A stretch of 29,615 nucleotides of DNA, from positions 1-29,615 of IMG/VR virus record IMGVR_UViG_2654587686_000021; one strand, written 5' to 3'. The position numbers and the translations under genes are program-made. Under the pieces are notes generated by a model. That model was not told the origin of the DNA and made no database searches. It saw only the letters and a program-made list of their open reading frames with translations. Positions 1 to 28,198 of this stretch are shown piece after piece (position 1 is the first letter of the stretch; each line of letters starts with the position of its first letter). Origin of the DNA: a virus. Taxonomy: Duplodnaviria; Heunggongvirae; Uroviricota; Caudoviricetes.

Positions 1-1209
1 ATGTCGGTTTTTCATAACTGGCTGCTTGATATCGCAAGCGGGAATTACTTTATCTACATCAAACGCCTTTCTGCAAACGACACAGGCGCAACAGGTGGCC
101 ATCAGGTCGGACTTTATATCCCCTCAAATATCGTTGAAAAGCTTTTTCCATCTATCAATCATACTCGCGAACTGAACCCTTCAGTCTTCCTTACTGCGCA
201 TGTATCATCCCATGATTGCCCTGATACCCAAGCACGCGCAATTTATTACAACAACCGTTATTTTGGTAAGACCCGAAACGAAAAAAGAATTACGCGCTGG
301 GGGAGAGGAAGTCCATTACAGAACCCTGAAAATACAGGAGCCCTCACAATTCTTGCTTTCAGGTTAAACGAACAGAACACTGACTGTTCCGAGGTAGATA
401 TATGGGTCTGCGTCAATCCCGATGAAGAGGATATCATCGAGTCTGCTATTGGCGAAATCATACCTGGAACCCTAATTTCCGGCCCTGCCGGACAAATTTT
501 GGGCGGATTGTCTCTTCAGCAAACTCCAGTAAATCATAAATATGTTATTCCTGAAGACTGGAAGAAGCGTTTTCCTTCTGGAAACGAAATTATTCAATAT
601 GCTGCTGGCCATTATGCTAAAAACTCCAAGGATCCAGATGAGCAACTGATTGACCGTCGGCGTGTCGAGTATGATATTTTTCTACTCGTCGAGGAATTAC
701 ATGTTCTTGATATTATTAAGAAAGGATTCGATTCTGTAGATGAGTTTATTGCATTAGCCAACTCTGTCAGTAATCGACGTAAATCAAGGGCAGGTAAATC
801 ACTTGAACTTCACCTAGAGAAGCTTTTTATCGAGCACGGACTACGGCATTTCTCCACTCAGGCAGTTACTGAAGGTAATAAAAAACCAGATTTCCTGTTT
901 CCTTCAGCAGAGGCATATCATAACGTTGAATTTCCTGTAGAAAACTTACGTATGCTGGCAGTAAAGACCACCTGCAAAGATCGCTGGCGTCAGATACTGA
1001 ATGAAGCAGATAAAATCCATCAGGTACATTTATTTACGCTGCAAGAAGGTGTTTCTTCAGCACAATACCGGGAAATGAAAGATGCGGGTGTCAGACTCGT
1101 TGTACCATCAACTTTACATAAAAAATACCCAGAAGCAGTTAGAGAAGAATTAATAACGCTCGGAGCATTCATTACTGAGCTGATAGAACTTTACGCTGAA
1201 CTATCATAG
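1..1209 (+). CDS. ecoRIIR: Type IIE restriction endonuclease, EcoRII-like (CCWGG)
   Basis: 402-aa ORF starting exactly at window base 1. N-terminus MSVFHNWLL...KRLSANDTGATGGHQVGLYIP matches my recollection of R.EcoRII (about 404 aa). Convergent with a Dcm/M.EcoRII-family methyltransferase 35 bp away. Upstream region is outside the window. Confidence 0.75.
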   Translation: MSVFHNWLLDIASGNYFIYIKRLSANDTGATGGHQVGLYIPSNIVEKLFPSINHTRELNPSVFLTAHVSSHDCPDTQARAIYYNNRYFGKTRNEKRITRWGRGSPLQNPENTGALTILAFRLNEQNTDCSEVDIWVCVNPDEEDIIESAIGEIIPGTLISGPAGQILGGLSLQQTPVNHKYVIPEDWKKRFPSGNEIIQYAAGHYAKNSKDPDEQLIDRRRVEYDIFLLVEELHVLDIIKKGFDSVDEFIALANSVSNRRKSRAGKSLELHLEKLFIEHGLRHFSTQAVTEGNKKPDFLFPSAEAYHNVEFPVENLRMLAVKTTCKDRWRQILNEADKIHQVHLFTLQEGVSSAQYREMKDAGVRLVVPSTLHKKYPEAVREELITLGAFITELIELYAELS

Positions 1210-1214
1210 GCTGA

Positions 1215-1237
1215 CTCCCGGCTTAAAAGGCCGGGAG
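1215..1237. terminator. Hairpin between convergent R and M genes (8-bp stem ctcccggc/gccgggag, 7-nt loop)
   Basis: Perfect inverted repeat seen directly between R stop (1209) and M stop (1244). No strong U-tract on either side, so terminator function is uncertain. Confidence 0.4.
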
Positions 1238-1243
1238 GTGTTC

Positions 1244-2677
1244 TCAAGGCTGCCCAGTCTTACCAGCATCAGCAGAAACAGCTTTGAGGATATAGGGTTC
1301 CAGAAGTCTGGCAACGGCTTCAAATACTGGCACCACAACGGAGTTACCGAACTGCCGATATGACTGAGTATCTGAAACCGGAATACGGAATGGTTTCCCT
1401 CCAGGTTTTTCAAACCCCATAAGGCGTGCGCACTCTCGGGGAGTCAGCCTGCGTGGTCGACGAGCCTGGTTACTCTCATTCATAAAGTCAGCCTCTCCCG
1501 TTGCCATATCCCAACCACGATCAATAAGAATTTCTGATCCGTCTTTGTGATATCTGGCAGAAAGTGTGCGTGCAATGCTTTCCTTATTCTCAGGATTGAC
1601 CAACCCAAAGCCAAAACCATTCCCCTTGGCTGCATGCTTTTTGGCGTAGTTATAAAGGTACTCCCATAGTTTTGGCGTAAGTATATATTTACTGTCGACT
1701 ACAGGCTCCAGCAATTCACCAAATGATGGGCGGTGTTCCGGATAAAAACGACTGATATCACGCAAGGTAAACCCCTTGTGAATATTCAGATCTCGTCTAA
1801 ATCCGACCAGAACAATGCGTTCACGATGCTGAGGCAAAAAATGCTTCCCATCGATAATCTTTGGATCGTTTTTTCCCATTTCTGCAGCATCGGCAACTTC
1901 GTAGCCCAGCTCGTCAAGGGTCTCCATAATGACTTTGAAAGTTTTACCCTTATCATGGCTCTTCAGATTTTTGACATTTTCCAGCACAAAAATTGCCGGT
2001 TTTTTTGCTCGTATAATACGTGCCACGTCAAAAAAAAGTGTTCCTTGTGCTTCACATTCAAAACCATGCGCACGACCAAGTGAGTTTTTCTTACTAACAC
2101 CAGCAAGGCTAAATGGCTGGCACGGGAACCCCGCAAGAAGCACATCATGATCCGGCACATGCTCATCAATATATGCATAAGCATCCGTTTCCAATACATC
2201 GGTTTTATCACTCAGCGTGACTTCCCGAATATCGAGATTGAATTTATGCACCTGTTCATCGTTAAACCAGTTGGCCTTGTATGTACGCACAGCATCTTTA
2301 TTCCATTCACTGGTAAAAACACACTGGCCTCCAATGGCCTCAAAACCTTTCCGTATCCCTCCAATTCCAGCAAATAAGTCAATGAAGCGGAAAGCATATT
2401 CCGGATGGTTTGCAGGTGGTTCTGGTAGCATCTTACGCAGAAGAGACTCTTCTACTGAAGTCAACGATTTTGGTAAACACTTGCCATTAATCCAGCGGTT
2501 GATGGTTTCACGGCTCCACTCATTTTTTCCGACTTTTCTCAGTAATTCAGCCACATACTTCTGATCATAGATTTCCAGCACTTTCTCGATAAGCTTTTTA
2601 TCATTTTCCTGTCGCAGCTTTTCTTCCGCCTCGGCTTCCTTCAGCAGATGCTGTGCCAACACTTCAAATTCAGACAT
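1244..2677 (-). CDS. ecoRIIM: DNA cytosine-5 methyltransferase, Dcm/M.EcoRII family (CCWGG-specific)
   Basis: C5-MTase motifs in the translation: [10 protein letters not shown] (motif I, AdoMet binding), [11 protein letters not shown] (motif IV, catalytic Cys), ENVKNL (motif VI), [10 protein letters not shown] (motif X). Start moved from ORF-track 2719 to the ATG at 2677 (MSEFEVLAQ...), which has a GGAGGA ribosome-binding site 4 nt upstream and gives 477 aa. Confidence 0.88.
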
Positions 2678-2984
2678 AATTCCTCCAAGGGGTCTAATGG
2701 GTGAAACTCTATCACTCATTCAACCCAGAAGGAAATGTTTTATCTGGATATTTAAACAGTGACTACAACGTAATCTAGCACTGGTGATGCTTTGTTAGGC
2801 ATAGAGAATCATTCTATATACGACTAATGACAGAAAAACAGCAGACAAGTAGTTTGTTCATAAATTAACGCATACTACGTGCCTACGGTTTTCGAGACCG
2901 GTCCAATCATCAAACGAAACATAAAATTAGCTCACATTATGAGGAAAAGTATCTTTTTTGTACTATGTAAATTCAAAGGCTTAG

Positions 2985-3854
<870 letters not shown>

Positions 3855-3876
3855 GTCTTTAAGTGATAAGCATAAA

Positions 3877-3909
3877 CCGCAGCACGATCTTGCATACGAC
3901 GTGCTACGG
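3877..3909. terminator. Imperfect hairpin between convergent GIY-YIG and invertase genes
   Basis: ccgcagcacg / cgtgctacgg (one mismatch) with 13-nt loop, followed by tttcattt on the plus strand. Confidence 0.4.
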
Positions 3910-3911
3910 TT

Positions 3912-4502
3912 TCATTTATCTCCGACCGGAAACTTCTTATACAGTGTCGATATACCAACATCATAGATGATCGCCACCTTCTGGCGAGGAACGCCTGATG
4001 CAATTAATCGCCCGGCCTGCGCCCATTGTTCTGGTGTAAGTTTGGGACGACGTCCACCAATTCGTCCCTGTGCGCGAGCAGCTTCCAGTCCAGCTTTTGT
4101 TCGTTCAACAATCAGTTCTCGTTCCATTTCAGCCAGGGCACCCATCACATGAAAGAAAAAACGCCCCATCGGTGTGCTGGTATCAATAGCATCCGTCAGG
4201 CTGCGAAAATTAACGCCACGTTCGCGCAACTCCTCAACCAGAATGACCAGATGCCGCATACTACGCCCTAGCCGATCCAGCTTCCAGACAACCAGAGTGT
4301 CACCTGCCGATAATGTCCTGAGCAGTTTTTTCAATCCCGGCCTTTCGGACTTTGTACCGCTTATCTTGTCTTCAAAAATCAGCTCGCATCCTGCACAGTT
4401 CAGCGCATTACGTTGTAGATCTGTGTTCTGGTCATTTGTTGACACACGTACATAGCCAATAAGCATGGTAGATCTCCCTGACAAAAGCAGGAATGATGCC
4501 AT
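3912..4502 (-). CDS. pin: Serine recombinase, DNA invertase of the Pin/Gin/Hin family
   Basis: N-terminal catalytic region LIGYVRVSTNDQ, resolvase-type core, and a C-terminal helix-turn-helix (RRPKLTPEQWAQAGRLIASGVPRQKVAIIYDVGISTLYK). Lies immediately beside an inverted-repeat-bounded tail-fibre segment. Confidence 0.9.
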   Translation of the reverse strand: MASFLLLSGRSTMLIGYVRVSTNDQNTDLQRNALNCAGCELIFEDKISGTKSERPGLKKLLRTLSAGDTLVVWKLDRLGRSMRHLVILVEELRERGVNFRSLTDAIDTSTPMGRFFFHVMGALAEMERELIVERTKAGLEAARAQGRIGGRRPKLTPEQWAQAGRLIASGVPRQKVAIIYDVGISTLYKKFPVGDK

Positions 4503-4532
4503 TTGCTCGTTATTTCTGCATTTTCATAAACG

Positions 4533-4563
4533 TTGGTTTGGGAGAAGCGGCAAAACGGAATGT
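4533..4563. repeat. Left inverted repeat / crossover site of the invertible tail-fibre segment
   Basis: 31-nt core ttggtttgggagaagcggcaaaacggaatgt is the exact reverse complement of 6035..6065. The flanking aaac(g/c)ttggttt resembles the AAACCnnGGTTT core of hix/gix/pix sites. Confidence 0.8.
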
Positions 4564-4900
4564 AGGTAACGAGCAAAACCAAATTCCGGATATGGCGGCG
4601 TTTGCCAGTTCACTTTCATCAACGGGGTTTCAAAAACTCCCTTCAGGTCTGATTATTCAGTGGGGTATTGTCAGTGGAGCATCAAACTATACGGTGACTT
4701 ACCCGGTAACATTCCCAAATCGTTCACTTGCGCTGTTGGCTGTGCCACATACAACGTCGGTGGCTGGTATATCTGCAATGGGCATAGCGAACTGTTCTGA
4801 TATCAGCAAATCACAGTTCTATATAATTGTTGGCGGTATATCTCAGGGAGAAATTGTCAAATATGAAAGGTCCTGTTTTTGGGTAGCAATCGGTGTATAG
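4564..4900 (+). CDS. Alternative tail-fibre C-terminal variable segment (silent orientation; joins the constant N-terminal part only after inversion)
   Basis: The plus-strand frame continues directly out of the left inverted repeat. It shares [11 protein letters not shown]...NQIPDM with the active fibre gene and then diverges. It has no start of its own; the ORF-track portion 4493..4532 is upstream of the repeat and not coding. Confidence 0.6.
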
Positions 4901-4908
4901 GTATATCT

Positions 4909-5304
4909 ATGATTTATTTCTCAAAATCGACTAATGGTTTTTTCTTTGATGGTATAAACAGCGACATGCCTGCTGACATTGTTGAGATAAGTACAGACTT
5001 ATACAATGAATTAATTGCCGGACAGCAGGAAGGGGGGGAATTAATCACGTCAGATGAAAATGGTTTACCGGTACTGAAATCTCCGGCGATTGATTATGTC
5101 GCACGTGCTGAAAATCAGCGAATGCAGTTACTTGCTCATGCCGATAATGTCACAGCTGACTGGCGGGTGGAATTAATGCTTGGTGATATCAGCAGTACAG
5201 ATAAAGAAAAACTATCTGCCTGGATGGACTACAAAAAAGAAGTAAAAGCCGTCGACACTTCGACGGCTCCTGAGATTAGCTGGCCTGAGTTACCGGAGGT
5301 GTAG
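4909..5304 (+). CDS. Tail fibre assembly protein (Tfa), partner of the silent fibre segment
   Basis: N-terminal MIYFSKSTNGFFFDG and C-terminal [12 protein letters not shown] are the conserved ends of Tfa chaperones (lambda Tfa ends VDTSTAPDIEWP). The first ATG is 4909; ORF-track start 4879 is a TTG. Confidence 0.7.
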   Translation: MIYFSKSTNGFFFDGINSDMPADIVEISTDLYNELIAGQQEGGELITSDENGLPVLKSPAIDYVARAENQRMQLLAHADNVTADWRVELMLGDISSTDKEKLSAWMDYKKEVKAVDTSTAPEISWPELPEV

Positions 5305-5695
5305 GCCATTCAATATCTGGCGCACCGGAAGTATCGACCAGTTCCAGTGCGTCCAGGTAATCCAGCCACAAATTATATTGTGCCAGTTCCTCACCTTTCA
5401 GCCGGCCAATAGCCGCTTTACCAGGCCATTGTTTACTGTTCATATAATCGTTGGCCTGTTCAATAAGTATATTTTTCATTCCCTCCGCTTCAGCTATTTC
5501 CTGTTCCTGTGTCTTCGCTGGATATTCAGTAAGTATAGGGTAGTTATCCGGGCTATTGATAATAATTTTCCCCGTACTCTGACCATTCATAAGTTCATAA
5601 TAAAGAGCATCTTCAATATCGAAAGCATCATCGGGAATATCGCTGTTGTTTTCAGAGAAAAATCCCTGAACAGATGGGGACCATTTCATTTTCAT
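5276..5695 (-). CDS. Tail fibre assembly protein (Tfa), active orientation
   Basis: C-terminal [13 protein letters not shown] Tfa signature. Start ATG overlaps the fibre-gene stop (ATGA). Confidence 0.8.
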
Positions 5696-6354
5696 AATTT
5701 CCCAATTCCTAAAATATGGACATCATCAGCCTTACGGGCATTCCAGGTGACAATTACATCGGTAGAGTGACGATTAACTGAGATTGCGTATGCTTCGTTA
5801 GTCGAGCCAGAAACTTTTGTGGCAAACACAGCAAACAGGACACCAAATGACTGGGGCCATTTATAGCCTGACAGCTGATAATTACCATTATTCAGTGTTA
5901 CAGCTTTGGCTGCTGCACTTGATGGAATCGTCAGCCACTGGAGTATCAACCCTCCTGGCAAAAGTTGTTTTCCGTAATAATCCCTCACCCCACTAAATGA
6001 AACCATGTCCGGTATCTGATTTTCCCCTGTGCCCACATTCCGTTTTGCCGCTTCTCCCAAACCAAGGTTTTCGAGAGCCGTTTTCACCGTGCCATCCGAT
6101 TTGATATCGCTAAACGGATTCTTGCGGCTTAACAGCAGCGCACGAAGCGCGGTAAGCAGCTGGTCATGCCGCCCCTTCTCCAGGCTGGCACCGGATGCCT
6201 CCACCACGCTGCAGAGTTCTTCCTGCAACATATCAAAGTAGTCATCATCAAGATCGGTGGCAGGTGTGCCGGTCTGGGGGTTACCACGGGTAAAACCGTT
6301 TTTACCCGCGCCGAACTTATCCTTCTGCGCGGTTTTCGTGTCTATACGATGCAT
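5692..6354 (-). CDS. Tail fibre protein (e14 StfP/YcfK-like); constant N-terminus outside and variable C-terminus inside the invertible segment
   Basis: 220-aa ORF that crosses the right inverted repeat at GLGEAAKRN. Gene order follows YmfQ-like and baseplate J-like genes, as in e14. Confidence 0.8.
6035..6065. repeat. Right inverted repeat / crossover site of the invertible segment
   Basis: Exact reverse complement of 4533..4563 (31 nt), lying inside the fibre gene. Confidence 0.8.
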
Positions 6355-14638: not shown

Positions 14639-16134
14639 TATGCGGACTCCTCTGAATACTGAAGACGGAACTGGTTAACCACGGCAAAGACACGCAACTG
14701 GTTAACATAGTCAGGCGGGAACAGCGTGTTCAGGCGGTTCGGATCGCTGGCATCACGCTCCACAACTAGGTACTGCTTAAACAGTGCGTAGTTTTCCACG
14801 ATCCCCGCACGCTCAAGCTGACGGTAGGTTGCCAGCAGTTCCCCTTTGATCACCGCCGGGGTGACAATCGCCTGACCGGGACCAAAGCGGGTACCGTCAC
14901 TGGCAAGCTTGTGACGCCCGTACTTACTGGTAATGACGGATTTCAGTTTGCGCAGTACATACGCGCTGGTATGCAGAGTCTCACTGTCTAGGTAGCTGTT
15001 ATCCGCAACCCCGTAAGCGTTTTTCCTGTACGTGGTGACATCACGCTGAATGCGCAGTACCCCGCTTTCGACATACGCCGTTGCCACGCCATGAGACAGC
15101 AGGGTCTGTTGTTCGGTCATCGTGAACCGTTTCCCCTTCGGCGCAGGCAGCATACCCACCAGCTCACCGGTCTGCGTGGGACGTGCCGGATCGTTGCGAA
15201 TAAACACCGCTGCGCGGGCGGTACGGCTTGCCGCCAGTTCGTCGGCAGGCGTCTGGGTCTCTTTTTCGTACCCCGCCAGGGTAATGTGCTGCTGGTTAAA
15301 CTGGTCACCTGCGGTCACCAGTTCTGACAGCGTGCCGATCTTTGCCGTATACACATGACCATACAGCTGACGCGCATAGCTCCAGCGACCGCTGGTATCG
15401 TTCATCTCGGTCACCAGCGTGTTAACGGAGGCCGTGTCGTTGAACGGCAGGCCGATATAATCAAACGGCTCATCCGCCATTGCAGCCACCGCGCCGGTGA
15501 GAACCGGAGCGCCCGTTCCGGCGGTCCCCGTCGCCACGGCAATCTGTACGCCCGCTGGCAGCACTTCGCCCCCACCAAAGCCGTAGTAATTGAGGCTGAC
15601 AGGAATTTCATTCCCGCAAAGCCCCTTATGACGCGCGGTCAGCGTGACCACGCCTGCCGAAGATGAGGCCGTAAACGGCAGGGCCGGAACGGCATTAATG
15701 GCATCTTTGATACTGCCGGCAATCGTCGTGACGTTATCGCCGTTGGTCACCGGTGCCTGCACGCGGGTACGTCCCACATAAACATTCACCGTGCCGGTTT
15801 CGGTTGCCGCCCCGGTCACCGTCAGCGTAACCGTTGCCGCCGCGCCTGTGGCTTCCGGAACGGCAATCACATACAGCTCGCCAAACGGGTCAGTCTGGCG
15901 ATAAGCCTCGACCATACGCGCCAGCTGACTTCCCGCACCACAAATCTGGCGTGCATAGTCTGCCGACGGCATCAGCACCAGACTGTTGGCAACAATCTCT
16001 GCACCGTTATTGGCATGACCAATCAGCAGCGATGCTCCGCTGTCCTGTGCAGTATTCGCCGCCGAGTTATCCATTTCCGCATAAAACAGCGGAACCAGCG
16101 TATTCGACGGAATGGTGTTAAAGCTTATCGTCAT
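14638..16134 (-). CDS. Contractile tail sheath protein (Mu L-like)
   Basis: 498 aa, Thr/Ala/Gly-rich, followed by tube and chaperone genes. Confidence 0.85.
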   Translation of the reverse strand: MTISFNTIPSNTLVPLFYAEMDNSAANTAQDSGASLLIGHANNGAEIVANSLVLMPSADYARQICGAGSQLARMVEAYRQTDPFGELYVIAVPEATGAAATVTLTVTGAATETGTVNVYVGRTRVQAPVTNGDNVTTIAGSIKDAINAVPALPFTASSSAGVVTLTARHKGLCGNEIPVSLNYYGFGGGEVLPAGVQIAVATGTAGTGAPVLTGAVAAMADEPFDYIGLPFNDTASVNTLVTEMNDTSGRWSYARQLYGHVYTAKIGTLSELVTAGDQFNQQHITLAGYEKETQTPADELAASRTARAAVFIRNDPARPTQTGELVGMLPAPKGKRFTMTEQQTLLSHGVATAYVESGVLRIQRDVTTYRKNAYGVADNSYLDSETLHTSAYVLRKLKSVITSKYGRHKLASDGTRFGPGQAIVTPAVIKGELLATYRQLERAGIVENYALFKQYLVVERDASDPNRLNTLFPPDYVNQLRVFAVVNQFRLQYSEESA

Positions 16135-19536: not shown

Positions 19537-20223
19537 TTAGAAGTTCAGATTTTTCAGTGCATTCAGTGCAGAGCCCACATCCTCAGCGTCGCGCAGGGAC
19601 AGTGCGCCATAGCCCCCGGCCATGAATGCTTTGGCCTGGGTACGGGAGAGTCCGACATCACGCAGGACTCTTTCGATTTTTTTCTGTTCGGGGATTTCCC
19701 CGCGGGCCAGTGCGTTCTTGACGTCGCTGATCCGCGCCTCGTCGTTAGACGGGAACGTCACCAGGCTGACTTCCCAGAGGTCAATTTCTTTCAGCAGAAA
19801 GGCTTCTTTGCTCCGGTCGTATTCCCAGTCTTTCAGGACGTACCCAATAGAAAGGCCGGTTAACGAACCGGCCTTCATGTGTGCATGTGCGCGTTTTGCG
19901 AGGGGATCATCATCAATAAGCAACCGTCCCCTGACGTAAAGCCCGACATCGTCTTCCTTCATTTCAGTGTAAACACCGATGGGTTCATCCATGCGGTGCT
20001 GCCAGAGCAGCGCAGGTAACGCTTTTCTGTCACTCCACGCCCGCAGGGAAGCAGCAAATGCCCCGGACATCACCACATCATCGTGGCTGTCCTTTACACC
20101 AAAGACGGAGCCATACCCTTCAAACTCACCGGAGTCACTGACAGATTTCAGACTCAGCGGTACATCAAGACGTTGTTTCGTCTGCATTGGCGTTATCCTT
20201 CTGCTTACCGGCTTTACTGCCAT
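19537..20223 (-). CDS. Prohead maturation protease, HK97 family
   Basis: 228 aa between portal and capsid genes. Confidence 0.8.
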   Translation of the reverse strand: MAVKPVSRRITPMQTKQRLDVPLSLKSVSDSGEFEGYGSVFGVKDSHDDVVMSGAFAASLRAWSDRKALPALLWQHRMDEPIGVYTEMKEDDVGLYVRGRLLIDDDPLAKRAHAHMKAGSLTGLSIGYVLKDWEYDRSKEAFLLKEIDLWEVSLVTFPSNDEARISDVKNALARGEIPEQKKIERVLRDVGLSRTQAKAFMAGGYGALSLRDAEDVGSALNALKNLNF

Positions 20224-26785: not shown

Positions 26786-27727
26786 ATGAGTACAGAAAAT
26801 AAGAATAAAACCAGGCGAGTGAGAGTTGGTTTTTTCACTGGTAATGGAAGCAAAAAAGATGGCACATCTGCTGCAAAACTAGCCTTTGAGCAAATGACCA
26901 CAGCAGATACTGTAACTTTTCCAATAACTTACACAACAGACACCCCAAGTCGAGGGTTAAAGTTAGTTATTCTTCAAAAAGATACCACACTGCAATGTTA
27001 CTTTGGTTACGTATCGTGGAGAAGGGAATGCCTACTACCGTTCATCGAGGATGCTACAGGTAGTGAGAGAACAATTCCTTTAAATGATAAAGATTCTGTA
27101 GTTGAAAGAACATATTTTATCTATTACTACGAAACGGACTTATTAGCTATGACCCTCAACCATATAGGGCCCAAAGTAAATGATCTGGCATTCATTTTGT
27201 ATAACAAAACTGATTTAAAAAGCGTCACTTTTGAAGCCATTTGGAAACAAGAGAGCATGAAGGAACTGCTTGAGGACGGAAATATCCTACGTAGTTTCGA
27301 TCTTATAGTTGCTGCTCCAAGAAACTTTAACAAAGCTAATTATAAGATTAAAAACCCTTTAGCTAATGAAATTATTGACATGGTTGTTGGTATGGGCGGG
27401 TCGCATCTAAGATTAAATATGCGAGGTCGGATTCGCCCGAAAAAACAAGGGTTTAACTATCTAAAAACTTCTGTCACCGATGCTATTAAGGAACTACTTG
27501 AACTTTTTCCAAAAGGTTCTGGAGGTCTAAAAATTAAAAAAATTGATGTAACAGAGCCATCCAATAGAACGCCCAAAAGTCTACTTGACCAAGTATTGGT
27601 CAGTACAAAGACAATCATTGTCAAAAGCGGTTATCCATCCGATTCTGATATCAGAACGGCGATGATATCTGCTAAAATTGATAACGCGAACTATCTTGCA
27701 CAGTATGAGCTCGCTAGCAGAGACTAA
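26786..27727 (+). CDS. Hypothetical soluble protein, first gene of AT-rich two-gene cassette (candidate sensor of an abortive-infection/defence module)
   Basis: 313 aa with no recognisable catalytic motif; AT-rich codon usage unlike flanking phage genes; followed 21 nt later by a membrane-protein gene with a strong ribosome-binding site. Confidence 0.6.
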   Translation: MSTENKNKTRRVRVGFFTGNGSKKDGTSAAKLAFEQMTTADTVTFPITYTTDTPSRGLKLVILQKDTTLQCYFGYVSWRRECLLPFIEDATGSERTIPLNDKDSVVERTYFIYYYETDLLAMTLNHIGPKVNDLAFILYNKTDLKSVTFEAIWKQESMKELLEDGNILRSFDLIVAAPRNFNKANYKIKNPLANEIIDMVVGMGGSHLRLNMRGRIRPKKQGFNYLKTSVTDAIKELLELFPKGSGGLKIKKIDVTEPSNRTPKSLLDQVLVSTKTIIVKSGYPSDSDIRTAMISAKIDNANYLAQYELASRD

Positions 27728-27748
27728 TAACCAAGCATGGAGGACACA

Positions 27749-28198
27749 ATGAGAGAATTAGCCACTTTTCTCTGGAAATGCGTCCTCTGGATTCTGTTGA
27801 CCTATGCAGCGACAAAACTGTTTAAACCGATGAAGCATGCTGACGTACTCACAACAGCGGGGGTGCTCTCGACTATATCAGGCATCCTGTTTGGTTTTGT
27901 TCTGGCTGCAATATCTATATTTAGTAGTGCAAACAGCGATAAGGAAGGAGCAATTAATGCCCTTAAGCAAAACAACGTGTTACCAACTCTGGTAAATAGA
28001 TTACTTTCAACAGGGTTAACTCTCATCGTCGCATGTATATTTCCATTGATAGCGATGTTTCTACCTGATGATGTTATTGTTGCGGGCAAACCTATTGATT
28101 TCCTGTTCATACTGTTAGGCTTATCCTCCCTTATAATTTCGCTATATACCTTCGGAAGGTGTTGGTTAGTGTTACGAAAAATCTTCCCCCACTTGTGA
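27749..28198 (+). CDS. Small polytopic membrane protein (four predicted TM helices), second gene of the cassette
   Basis: GGAGGA ribosome-binding site 4-5 nt upstream of ATG 27749 (ORF-track start 27737 is 12 nt further up). Hydrophobic segments FLWKCVLWILLTYAATKLF, VLTTAGVLSTISGILFGFVLAAISIFSS, LLSTGLTLIVACIFPLIAMFL, IDFLFILLGLSSLIISLYTF. Confidence 0.65.
   Translation: MRELATFLWKCVLWILLTYAATKLFKPMKHADVLTTAGVLSTISGILFGFVLAAISIFSSANSDKEGAINALKQNNVLPTLVNRLLSTGLTLIVACIFPLIAMFLPDDVIVAGKPIDFLFILLGLSSLIISLYTFGRCWLVLRKIFPHL

Follow-up and report, generated by a model that had tools for sequence, protein, structure and literature searches.

The DNA analysed here (the window, 29,615 nucleotides) opens with two convergent genes, R and M, whose products belong to the EcoRII family of restriction-modification (R-M) enzymes, and these are followed by a second nuclease gene, by part of an attachment-like site and by an invertase gene that marks the tail-fibre end of the prophage. 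The features of this end of the window are listed below, with the basis of each assignment in brackets.

1-1209, plus strand: R gene, EcoRII-family type IIE restriction endonuclease, 402 aa (phmmer, Pfam, PADLOC)
1215-1237, no strand assigned: conserved hairpin in the R/M spacer (fold and allele conservation)
1244-2677, minus strand: M gene, M.EcoRII/Dcm-family C5 cytosine methyltransferase, 477 aa (NCBIfam, Pfam, motifs)
2678-2760, minus strand: conserved region upstream of M, with ribosome site, presumed promoter and presumed M-binding operator (allele alignment)
2761-2869, no strand assigned: insertion-specific spacer (blastn limits)
3081-3854, plus strand: CMoRE/PD-T4-3, single-gene type IV GIY-YIG nuclease (PADLOC, PDB)
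3875-3914, no strand assigned: left half of a second att-like (ssrA 3'-end-like) site (alignment)
3912-4502, minus strand: Pin-family serine invertase, tail-fibre end marker (Pfam Resolvase and HTH_7)

The R product matches EcoRII (PDB 1na6) over its full length (phmmer, query residues 1-401, E=1.3e-242, about 86% identity) and scores 772 bits with the PADLOC model REase_II. It has the N-terminal effector (B3-like) DNA-binding domain (Pfam EcoRII-N, residues 16-163, E=3.9e-61; PDB 3hqf, E=9e-100) and the C-terminal catalytic PD-(D/E)XK domain (Pfam EcoRII-C, residues 227-391, E=2.4e-71), and shares 87.6% amino acid identity with the plasmid alleles. The acidic and lysine residues E271, D299, K324 and E337 (404-aa numbering), which from the structural literature we take to be the catalytic set, are all conserved. 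Also retained are R222 and Y226, the pocket residues with which EcoRII checks the flipped central A/T base (PMC2577355), and the segment that surrounds them, DRRRVEYD, is that of EcoRII (1na6). From its 86-88% identity to EcoRII, R is predicted to cleave CCWGG unless the inner C is methylated and to need a second site for activity. An in-frame ATG lies 6 nt 5' of the window and would give the 404-aa R that is annotated on plasmids. The exact R protein is found on at least 1000 public contigs, under a generic name only.

M is a full-length match to the Dcm subfamily model PRK10458 of NCBIfam ('DNA cytosine methylase'; 927 bits, cut-off 710), with the family-specific N-terminal domain (Pfam DNA_meth_N, E=7e-27), the catalytic part (Pfam DNA_methylase, E=4.7e-78) and the C5-methylase motifs I, IV, VI, VIII and X (FAGIGG, PCQ, ENV, QHRER and GNS). 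It is 90.4-90.6% identical to plasmid M.EcoRII alleles and 66.3% identical to Dcm, and would be expected to methylate the inner C of CCWGG. A preliminary description of the window, made from its letters alone, had recognised an EcoRII-like endonuclease and a methyltransferase with all the C5 motifs and a Dcm-like N-terminus, and both identifications hold. It had placed the pair at 1-2719, where both reading frames are indeed present and intact; the M frame is open up to 2719, but the true start of the gene is almost certainly at 2677, because a Shine-Dalgarno box (GGAGG) lies 5 nt 5' of the ATG at that position and because PGAP and all plasmid homologues agree on this start and on the 477-aa length.

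Measured against two plasmid alleles, both genes are under strong purifying selection (dN/dS 0.035-0.048 for the pair, 0.04-0.05 for R and 0.035-0.04 for M), and among 34 near-identical IMG/VR copies R is intact in 33 and M in 31. The prophage M allele contains a T8 run (window 2030-2037) that is absent from plasmid alleles and from dcm. A 7-base form of the run occurs in two IMG/VR copies (L019 and L037), with R intact in both, and in one of 263 complete-genome records searched with a 68-nt probe of M. Phase variation of M through this run was considered and rejected, the rarity of the 7-base form pointing instead to rare mutation or sequencing error.

Limits and regulation of the cassette

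The stop codons of R and M are separated by a spacer of 34 bp (1210-1243), for which 35 bp had been given previously, and the perfect 8-bp hairpin described within it is real, with CTCCCGGC (1215-1222) opposite GCCGGGAG (1230-1237). As RNA the hairpin forms 10 pairs (-18.6 kcal/mol, z=-3.0; 1 of 200 shuffles equally good), and its stem is invariant in four alleles that have diverged by about 20% elsewhere, while the flanks vary. It is presumed to act as a two-way transcription stop or as a stabiliser of RNA 3' ends and, following the EcoRII literature, would keep the two convergent transcripts apart. A role as terminator is uncertain because the hairpin has no U tract, and a terminator scan lists no canonical intrinsic terminator there. 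Rfam gives no match at the gathering threshold in the window.

The cassette extends from about -66 to 2760 (2.8 kb) and shares about 80% DNA identity with the EcoRII loci of conjugative plasmids, the common unit taking in some 66 bp 5' of R and some 85 bp 5' of M. The stretch of about 85 bp before the ATG of M is nearly invariant in three aligned alleles and unalignable further out, and homology to the plasmids stops abruptly at 2759-2760 (blastn). The adjoining 2761-2869 is absent both from plasmid EcoRII loci and from prophages without R-M, and homology to relatives of the latter kind resumes at 2870 or 2883 (blastn). M.EcoRII binds the DNA upstream of its gene and thereby represses its promoter (Som & Friedman, 1994, as cited in PMC3874152), and the conserved stretch upstream of M fits a predicted regulatory site. 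A simple scan found no consensus sigma-70 promoter 5' of R or M. To judge from conservation, the cassette may have a promoter and a terminator of its own, and its base composition is foreign (42-45% G+C vs 52% for the rest of the window).

EcoRII had been noted at the outset to be a plasmid system, in keeping with the loci of about 80% identity that are found on 640 PLSDB plasmids; conjugative plasmids make up 482 of the 643 matching records, which come from Escherichia, Klebsiella, Enterobacter, Citrobacter and Salmonella. Like plasmid EcoRII (PDB 1NA6, 3HQF and 3HQG; M.EcoRII), the pair described here combines a two-domain endonuclease with a 477-aa methylase that carries DNA_meth_N, in a convergent layout, and the hairpin of the spacer is conserved along with the regions upstream of either gene, with R about 86-88% and M about 90% identical. 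It differs in the roughly 20% divergence of its DNA, in the T8 run of M and in its carrier, which is a prophage at ssrA. With Dcm of E. coli, M shares one methylase family, one NCBIfam subfamily model, 66% identity and the presumed CCWGG target, whereas Dcm is solitary and chromosomal, its gene overlapping vsr, and M comes with a nuclease and without vsr.

Prophage context and the cargo slot

R begins at the first base of the window, and its upstream context was inspected in matching genomes, where the tmRNA gene, ssrA, lies 234 bp before it and R starts just within attL. In strain R12, the att core is repeated directly and perfectly at a distance of 41,051 bp, with R-M, CMoRE and the whole phage in between, and a circular record of phage length (43,671 bp) carries the pair in the order int-dinI-attP-R-M-CMoRE-tail genes, which places it on the tail-fibre/pin side of attP, opposite the integrase. 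The pair, present in 34 IMG/VR viral contigs, lies inside the att repeats and is accessory cargo (a moron) of the prophage, as had been proposed for the tail-fibre end. The phage body is 97% identical to SfII, SfI, SfIV and SfV, and 86-88% of window positions 5000-25000 matches SfII, SfI and vB_EcoM-689R6 at 97%. Its structural module (P27-type terminase, HK97-type head, Mu-type contractile tail and baseplate) is shared with temperate myoviruses of the SfV/e14 type, and PGAP uses the e14 gene names ymfQ, ymfR, ymfL and stfP for this prophage. Two plus-strand reading frames at 26786-28198 have no Pfam or PADLOC match. The e14 site, icd, was considered as the integration site and rejected; ssrA is the site.

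The pair had been described as adjoining Pin in the position that mcrA has in e14. The invertase, annotated pinE in relatives, is near, but the CMoRE gene sits between it and M, so that CMoRE, not R-M, abuts pin. The CMoRE product matches PDB 9u75 over its full length (residues 1-257, E=3.7e-172) and PADLOC PD-T4-3 (E=2.4e-140); CMoRE/PD-T4-3 targets DNA with 5hmC or glucosyl-hmC (PMC12923530; bioRxiv 10.1101/2024.12.20.629700), and is the second restriction cargo in the R-M slot. The comparison with e14 of E. coli K-12 stands as far as the slot is concerned: in both, a restriction gene lies between pin and the attachment site on a homologous phage backbone (pinE-mcrA-icdC/att in e14). McrA, however, is a single HNH type IV enzyme, whereas here a GIY-YIG CMoRE accompanies a type II R-M pair, and attachment is at ssrA, not at icd as in e14. 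SfV, a member of the same phage family (structural genes 97% identical), has this same slot for cargo between tail-fibre assembly and attP/int, but its gtrABC serotype-conversion cassette alters O antigen and does not restrict DNA.

Other cargo occupies the slot from pin and the tail fibre to att in the relatives L003-L008, and the alternatives include an AraC regulator and BRO-N/HTH/ImmA as well as gtrABC. The suggestion of a hotspot that exchanges restriction cargos is thus borne out in that relatives carry different cargos, but not all of these are restriction genes. R-M is dispensable and replaceable, since there are relatives without it or with other genes in its place, and the CMoRE region is found in 868 genomes as against 261 for R-M. 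The R-M DNA had no megablast match among 50,697 phage records, and tblastn in deposited phage genomes found only relatives of at most 40% identity, Burkholderia phage KL3 among them. KL3 is also a temperate phage with an EcoRII-related nuclease and a CCWGG-type methylase (PMC3091744), but it is P2-like, its genes are co-oriented with vsr in between, and only the catalytic C-terminal part of R aligns with it (residues 169-395, 39% identity).

The second att-like site, which follows CMoRE and is present in full at about 15600-15715 of the circular phage record L002, is a common break point of homology among relatives, breaks falling at 3912-3914 (blastn). In strain elppa10 lambda-like tail genes adjoin the ssrA-R-M-CMoRE block, and the tmRNA locus is a known hotspot for multiple elements (PMC10121019). 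All of this would accord with a small resident islet at ssrA, made up of R-M and CMoRE between two att-like sites, beside which phages integrate, the link to the phage being one of adjacency only. Such an islet is unlikely, given that circular phage-length records contain the block between attP and the tail genes, that the only perfect core repeats in R12 have the block and the entire phage between them, and that the second site has a degenerate sequence (CCCCCA in place of CCACCA) or, in the window, is truncated. An equally doubtful proposal is that R-M and CMoRE form a hitch-hiking defence cassette without an integrase, swapped among ssrA-integrating phages at the inner att-like site; if true, it would explain why the tail junction is of the SfV type in most genomes and of the lambda type in elppa10.

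Host Dcm and the role of the R-M pair

Of 5426 complete E. coli genomes, 261 carry the prophage R-M allele, which in these carriers is always linked to one and the same att arm (R-M pair at 99% identity or more, 263 records; att arm and 68-nt stretch of M, 263 records from 261 genomes each). As anticipated from the redundancy of Dcm-family methylation in E. coli, 5367 of the 5426 genomes have a dcm-like gene, and two carrier records among the matches listed show a second methylase match besides M, which is presumably dcm. The window contains 60 CCWGG sites; base composition predicts 59.7, dinucleotide shuffles give 56.4 +/- 6.9 and a third-order Markov estimate is 91. Avoidance of CCWGG in the prophage was rejected (60 observed vs 56-60 expected), and this lack of depletion is uninformative rather than contrary, no signal being expected in a Dcm+ host.

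We consider it likely that the locus is a complete and most likely active type IIE R-M system of the EcoRII family, specific for CCWGG, and that it travels as a moron in a temperate myovirus of the SfV/SfII/e14 type, whose integration site is the 3' end of ssrA. By extension from the EcoRII literature, M would methylate the inner C of CCWGG and repress its own promoter via its N-terminal domain, and R would be auto-inhibited by its N-terminal effector domain and cut only DNA with at least two unmethylated sites. The phage brings its own copy of the ssrA terminator, 75 bp ahead of R, and this copy may shield R from read-through of ssrA. In a lysogen the pair would restrict phage and plasmid DNA arriving from dcm-minus sources, in which CCWGG is unmethylated, and CMoRE would cut hydroxymethylcytosine phages, so that between them unmodified and hypermodified cytosine DNA would both be covered. 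The phage could enter without self-restriction because nearly all E. coli methylate CCWGG via Dcm; the defensive benefit may in turn be small, since near-universal Dcm protects most incoming coliphage DNA.

Dcm bears equally on whether the pair is mainly a selfish addiction module that stabilises the prophage by post-segregational killing and does not serve host defence. Chromosomal Dcm, which has the same specificity, attenuates host killing by EcoRII (PMC3874152), and with a dcm-like gene in nearly every genome and a second methylase match in the carriers listed, addiction would be workable only in rare dcm-minus hosts; in Dcm-methylated E. coli a post-segregational hold on the host would be impossible for R-M. 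Plasmid EcoRII does cause such killing, which is enhanced by the instability of M (PMC3874152). The pair also sits at the very edge of the mobile element and is co-inherited with the att arm in 263 of 263 records, but we regard addiction as its main role as very unlikely.

Phage-borne methylases that protect progeny DNA are common. M might accordingly be the useful gene, topping up CCWGG methylation of fast-replicating phage DNA against plasmid EcoRII, with R as a passenger, although R is constrained like M, is intact in all but one of the IMG/VR copies and keeps all its catalytic residues. EcoRII-type plasmid loci are widespread across the genera named above (643 records), the chromosome is already covered by host Dcm, and the EcoRII-C/Vsr/methylase module of KL3 has been proposed to act in the lytic cycle (PMC3091744). 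M of the present pair, however, points away from the phage late genes and retains the plasmid-type, presumably autoregulated upstream region, an arrangement that steady, low expression in the lysogen would fit better than a lytic burst, and a benefit from M alone appears highly improbable.

The R-M pair is an intact, uncharacterised relative of classic EcoRII and belongs to an ordinary, already annotated type of phage cargo, and there is little to be gained from it for basic mechanism, the enzymes being closely related to one of the best-studied restriction systems. Its carriage means that about 5% of complete E. coli genomes have a prophage-borne second CCWGG methylase together with an EcoRII-type nuclease, which is relevant to the transfer of dcm-minus DNA into wild strains and to the reading of 5mC methylomes. 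The cargo slot of the SfV/e14 lineage offers a clean single-slot example, in which mcrA, CMoRE, an EcoRII-type pair, an AraC regulator or O-antigen genes may be found, and in the present prophage a nuclease for unmodified cytosine DNA would be paired with one for hydroxymethylcytosine DNA.

The EcoRII-type gene pair

The restriction-modification pair lies at one end of the window, and the features relevant to it are as follows.

1–1209, + strand: R, endonuclease gene, uninterrupted open reading frame of 402 aa
1244–2719, − strand: M, C5 methyltransferase gene, open over 491 aa; start almost certainly at 2677 (477 aa), from GGAGG, PGAP and homologue lengths
3081–3854, + strand: CMoRE (PD-T4-3), GIY-YIG gene (PADLOC E = 2e-140; PDB 9u75 E = 4e-172)
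L001 (the locus running upstream of the window) 19767–20000: ssrA–R interval, 234 bp directly upstream of window base 1
L001 19894–19917: strong terminator hairpin in the phage-borne ssrA flank

By every sequence feature that could be tested the locus is a member of the EcoRII family, with a predicted CCWGG specificity. The preliminary description had likened R to R.EcoRII and M to a C5 methyltransferase with a Dcm-like N-terminus, and both assignments hold. The R protein matches R.EcoRII (PDB 1na6) over its full length (residues 1–401, E = 1.3e-242), at about 86% identity by hand count on the printed alignment. Both family domains, EcoRII-N and EcoRII-C, are found, together with E271, D299, K324 and E337 (404-residue numbering), which we take from the structural papers to be the catalytic residues of R.EcoRII. 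Its DRRRVEYD segment is identical to that of EcoRII and contains R222 and Y226, which form the pocket probing the central A/T base once it is flipped out (PMC2577355). A second in-frame ATG two codons (6 nt) upstream of window base 1 (L001 19995–20000) would give the 404-aa length annotated for plasmid EcoRII; the ATG at base 1 is favoured because of its ribosome-site spacing. NCBI already lists the exact protein, under the name 'MULTISPECIES: type II restriction endonuclease', for at least 1000 contigs.

The M protein scores 927 bits against NCBIfam PRK10458 'DNA cytosine methylase' (cut-off 710), and comprises DNA_meth_N and DNA_methylase domains with the FAGIGG, PCQ, ENV, QHRER and GNS motifs. 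The ATG at 2677 is almost certainly the true start, since GGAGG lies 5 nt upstream, PGAP chooses it and all plasmid homologues have equal length. Amino acid identity to the plasmid alleles is 87.6% for R and 90.4–90.6% for M, which is 66.3% identical to Dcm, and both genes are lower in G+C (42% and 45%, respectively) than the rest of the window (52%). Against the plasmid alleles dN/dS is 0.042–0.048 for R and 0.035–0.041 for M, values that are rough because synonymous sites are near saturation; despite this, their sequences indicate that both genes are kept functional over time. A T8 run in M (A8 on the + strand, window 2030–2037), which only the prophage allele has, is reduced to seven bases in two IMG/VR copies (L019 and L037), where M is frameshifted and R intact. 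A phase switch was considered here and rejected, as the shortened form occurs in only one of 263 complete-genome records (strain AH02).

The spacer was first described as 35 bp with a perfect 8-bp hairpin; the stop codons are in fact 34 bp apart, while the stem is as described, forming 10 pairs in RNA (−18.6 kcal/mol, z = −3.0) and remaining unchanged across four alleles whose divergence elsewhere is about 20%. A U tract is absent, and in a terminator scan the hairpin is not a textbook terminator. Plasmid carriage of EcoRII, invoked previously, is borne out by loci of about 80% DNA identity (IncF plasmids, Salmonella and Enterobacter), the similarity running from 67 bp 5' of R to window 2760. 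In relatives that do not have the pair, homology ends 65 bp 5' of R and restarts at 2870 or 2883. The unit therefore took its flanking DNA along when it moved. A TATAAC/TATAAT box and a GGGA ribosome site are both conserved 5' of R, and a region of about 85 bp 5' of M is almost invariant among alleles. M.EcoRII binds and represses its own promoter (Som & Friedman, 1994, as cited in PMC3874152), and by analogy the M operator may lie in this conserved region.

Attachment site and phage carriage

Among complete E. coli genomes, 263 records contain the DNA of the pair at ≥99% identity. In strain VTB96816v, a 100% match, the start of R lies 234 bp 3' of ssrA (the tmRNA gene). This upstream sequence, which the preliminary description wished to see inspected, holds the att core, about CCACCAATCATGATTGG, followed by the phage's own version of the ssrA 3' flank, including the terminator hairpin; some 75 bp then remain before R begins. 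Of the probed flank, the first 132 bases (L001 19790–19921) are 88–93% identical to native sequence in >4000 genomes, whereas the last ~79 occur only in the 263 carrier records; the native flank comes to lie at the opposite end of the prophage. The phage thus brings its own ssrA flank with a strong terminator, so that R would be insulated from ssrA transcription. In strain R12 the att core is repeated 41,051 bp away, past an integrase, which places the pair just inside attL of a complete prophage, in agreement with its earlier description as prophage cargo at the tail-fibre end.

Three PLSDB records deposited as unnamed non-mobilisable plasmids of 30–44 kb (NZ_CP081794.1, NZ_CP081704.1 and NZ_CP104634.1) carry the prophage allele at 99.6–99.7%. 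Of these, NZ_CP081794.1 (43,671 bp) was inspected and proved to be the phage genome in circular form (int, dinI, attP, R, M, GIY-YIG gene, tail genes), which suggests that the prophage excises spontaneously. In IMG/VR, 34 viral contigs have R at 99–100% identity and many begin exactly at its start codon, which is probably why the window does so.

The structural genes are 97% identical to those of Shigella phages SfII, SfI, SfIV and SfV and Escherichia phage vB_EcoM-689R6. Window 4493–5700 is the Pin-invertible tail-fibre segment, with tail-fibre C-terminus and assembly genes opposed, and about 70 bp of it (4528–4596) match relatives in inverted orientation. Elsewhere, between holin and the Q antiterminator, the opposite strand bears two ORFs (313 and 153 aa; 26786–28198, + strand); neither Pfam nor PADLOC gives a match for them, and they may form a second cargo locus among the late genes.

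An EcoRII-type module on a phage is not without precedent: Burkholderia phage KL3 carries one (PMC3091744). Distant EcoRII-like nucleases (38–52% identity) also occur beside C5 methylases on other predicted viral contigs from IMG/VR metagenomes (L048–L053), co-directional with M preceding R; EcoRII-type phage modules are therefore not confined to this prophage lineage.

The cargo slot and its neighbour CMoRE

The pair had been placed next to Pin. It is close, but the gene directly adjoining pin (3912–4502, − strand) is CMoRE. This type IV GIY-YIG nuclease degrades T-even phage DNA containing 5hmC or glucosyl-hmC (PMC12923530) and is active in a native clinical host (bioRxiv 10.1101/2024.12.20.629700). 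The CMoRE region occurs in 868 genomes; 261 carry the R-M pair. The analogy drawn with the mcrA position of e14 is sound, the K-12 order being tail fibre, pinE, mcrA, icdC/att; the closest counterpart of mcrA is, however, CMoRE.

Cargo in the slot among related prophages
Window and carriers, att region ssrA: EcoRII-type R-M and CMoRE
Strain KSC1031 (L005 4538–6789), ssrA: BRO-N protein, HTH protein, ImmA/IrrE metallopeptidase and two small ORFs, then CMoRE and pin
O157:H7 and several other strains, another site: AraC-family regulator, sometimes insertion sequences, then CMoRE
Phage SfV, own attP/int (tail-fibre end): gtrABC
e14 (K-12), icd: mcrA

The proposed exchange of cargos is thus upheld, although not its restriction to restriction genes, since the AraC regulator, gtrABC and the BRO-N set also occur: this is a general cargo slot, often but not always occupied by restriction genes. 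The tmRNA locus is defence hotspot #9 in an E. coli pan-genome catalogue (PMC10121019). The R-M pair itself is ordinary, an uncharacterised EcoRII-family member in a known type of cargo slot.

The R-M-CMoRE block may once have been, or may still be, a separate islet captured by phages. A second att-like site, resembling the ssrA 3' end, lies just past CMoRE (window 3875–3914; about 15600–15715 in the circular phage record, L002); the circular record has the entire site in degenerate form, only its left half is present in the window, where pin begins, and the homology of relatives breaks there (3912–3914). Furthermore, in strain elppa10 (L009, NZ_CP083478.1) the ssrA-R-M-CMoRE block continues into lambda-type tail genes (Lom, tail tip J) rather than an SfV-type tail, and has therefore joined different phage bodies. 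Two observations, however, argue that today the block travels as phage DNA, namely the circular record and the outer repeats of the core.

Dcm and the role of the pair

The redundancy with Dcm noted previously is real: of 5426 genomes, 5367 contain a dcm-like gene, and both of the carrier records listed show, in addition to M, another match that is presumably dcm. Native dcm overlaps vsr, whereas the prophage M has no vsr partner. Host killing after EcoRII loss is attenuated by Dcm (PMC3874152), which makes addiction unlikely as the main role in E. coli. The CCWGG count proposed earlier revealed no depletion in the prophage (60 sites against 56–60 expected), and none is expected if the sites are always methylated.

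The actual benefit of the pair in a Dcm+ species is uncertain. M may serve to methylate phage progeny fully against plasmid EcoRII systems, which are found in 643 PLSDB records, 482 of them conjugative. With CMoRE beside the R-M pair, the prophage end has two complementary restriction functions, and the most economical reading is that the pair functions as a restriction barrier to DNA arriving from dcm-minus sources, coupled with CMoRE against hmC phages.
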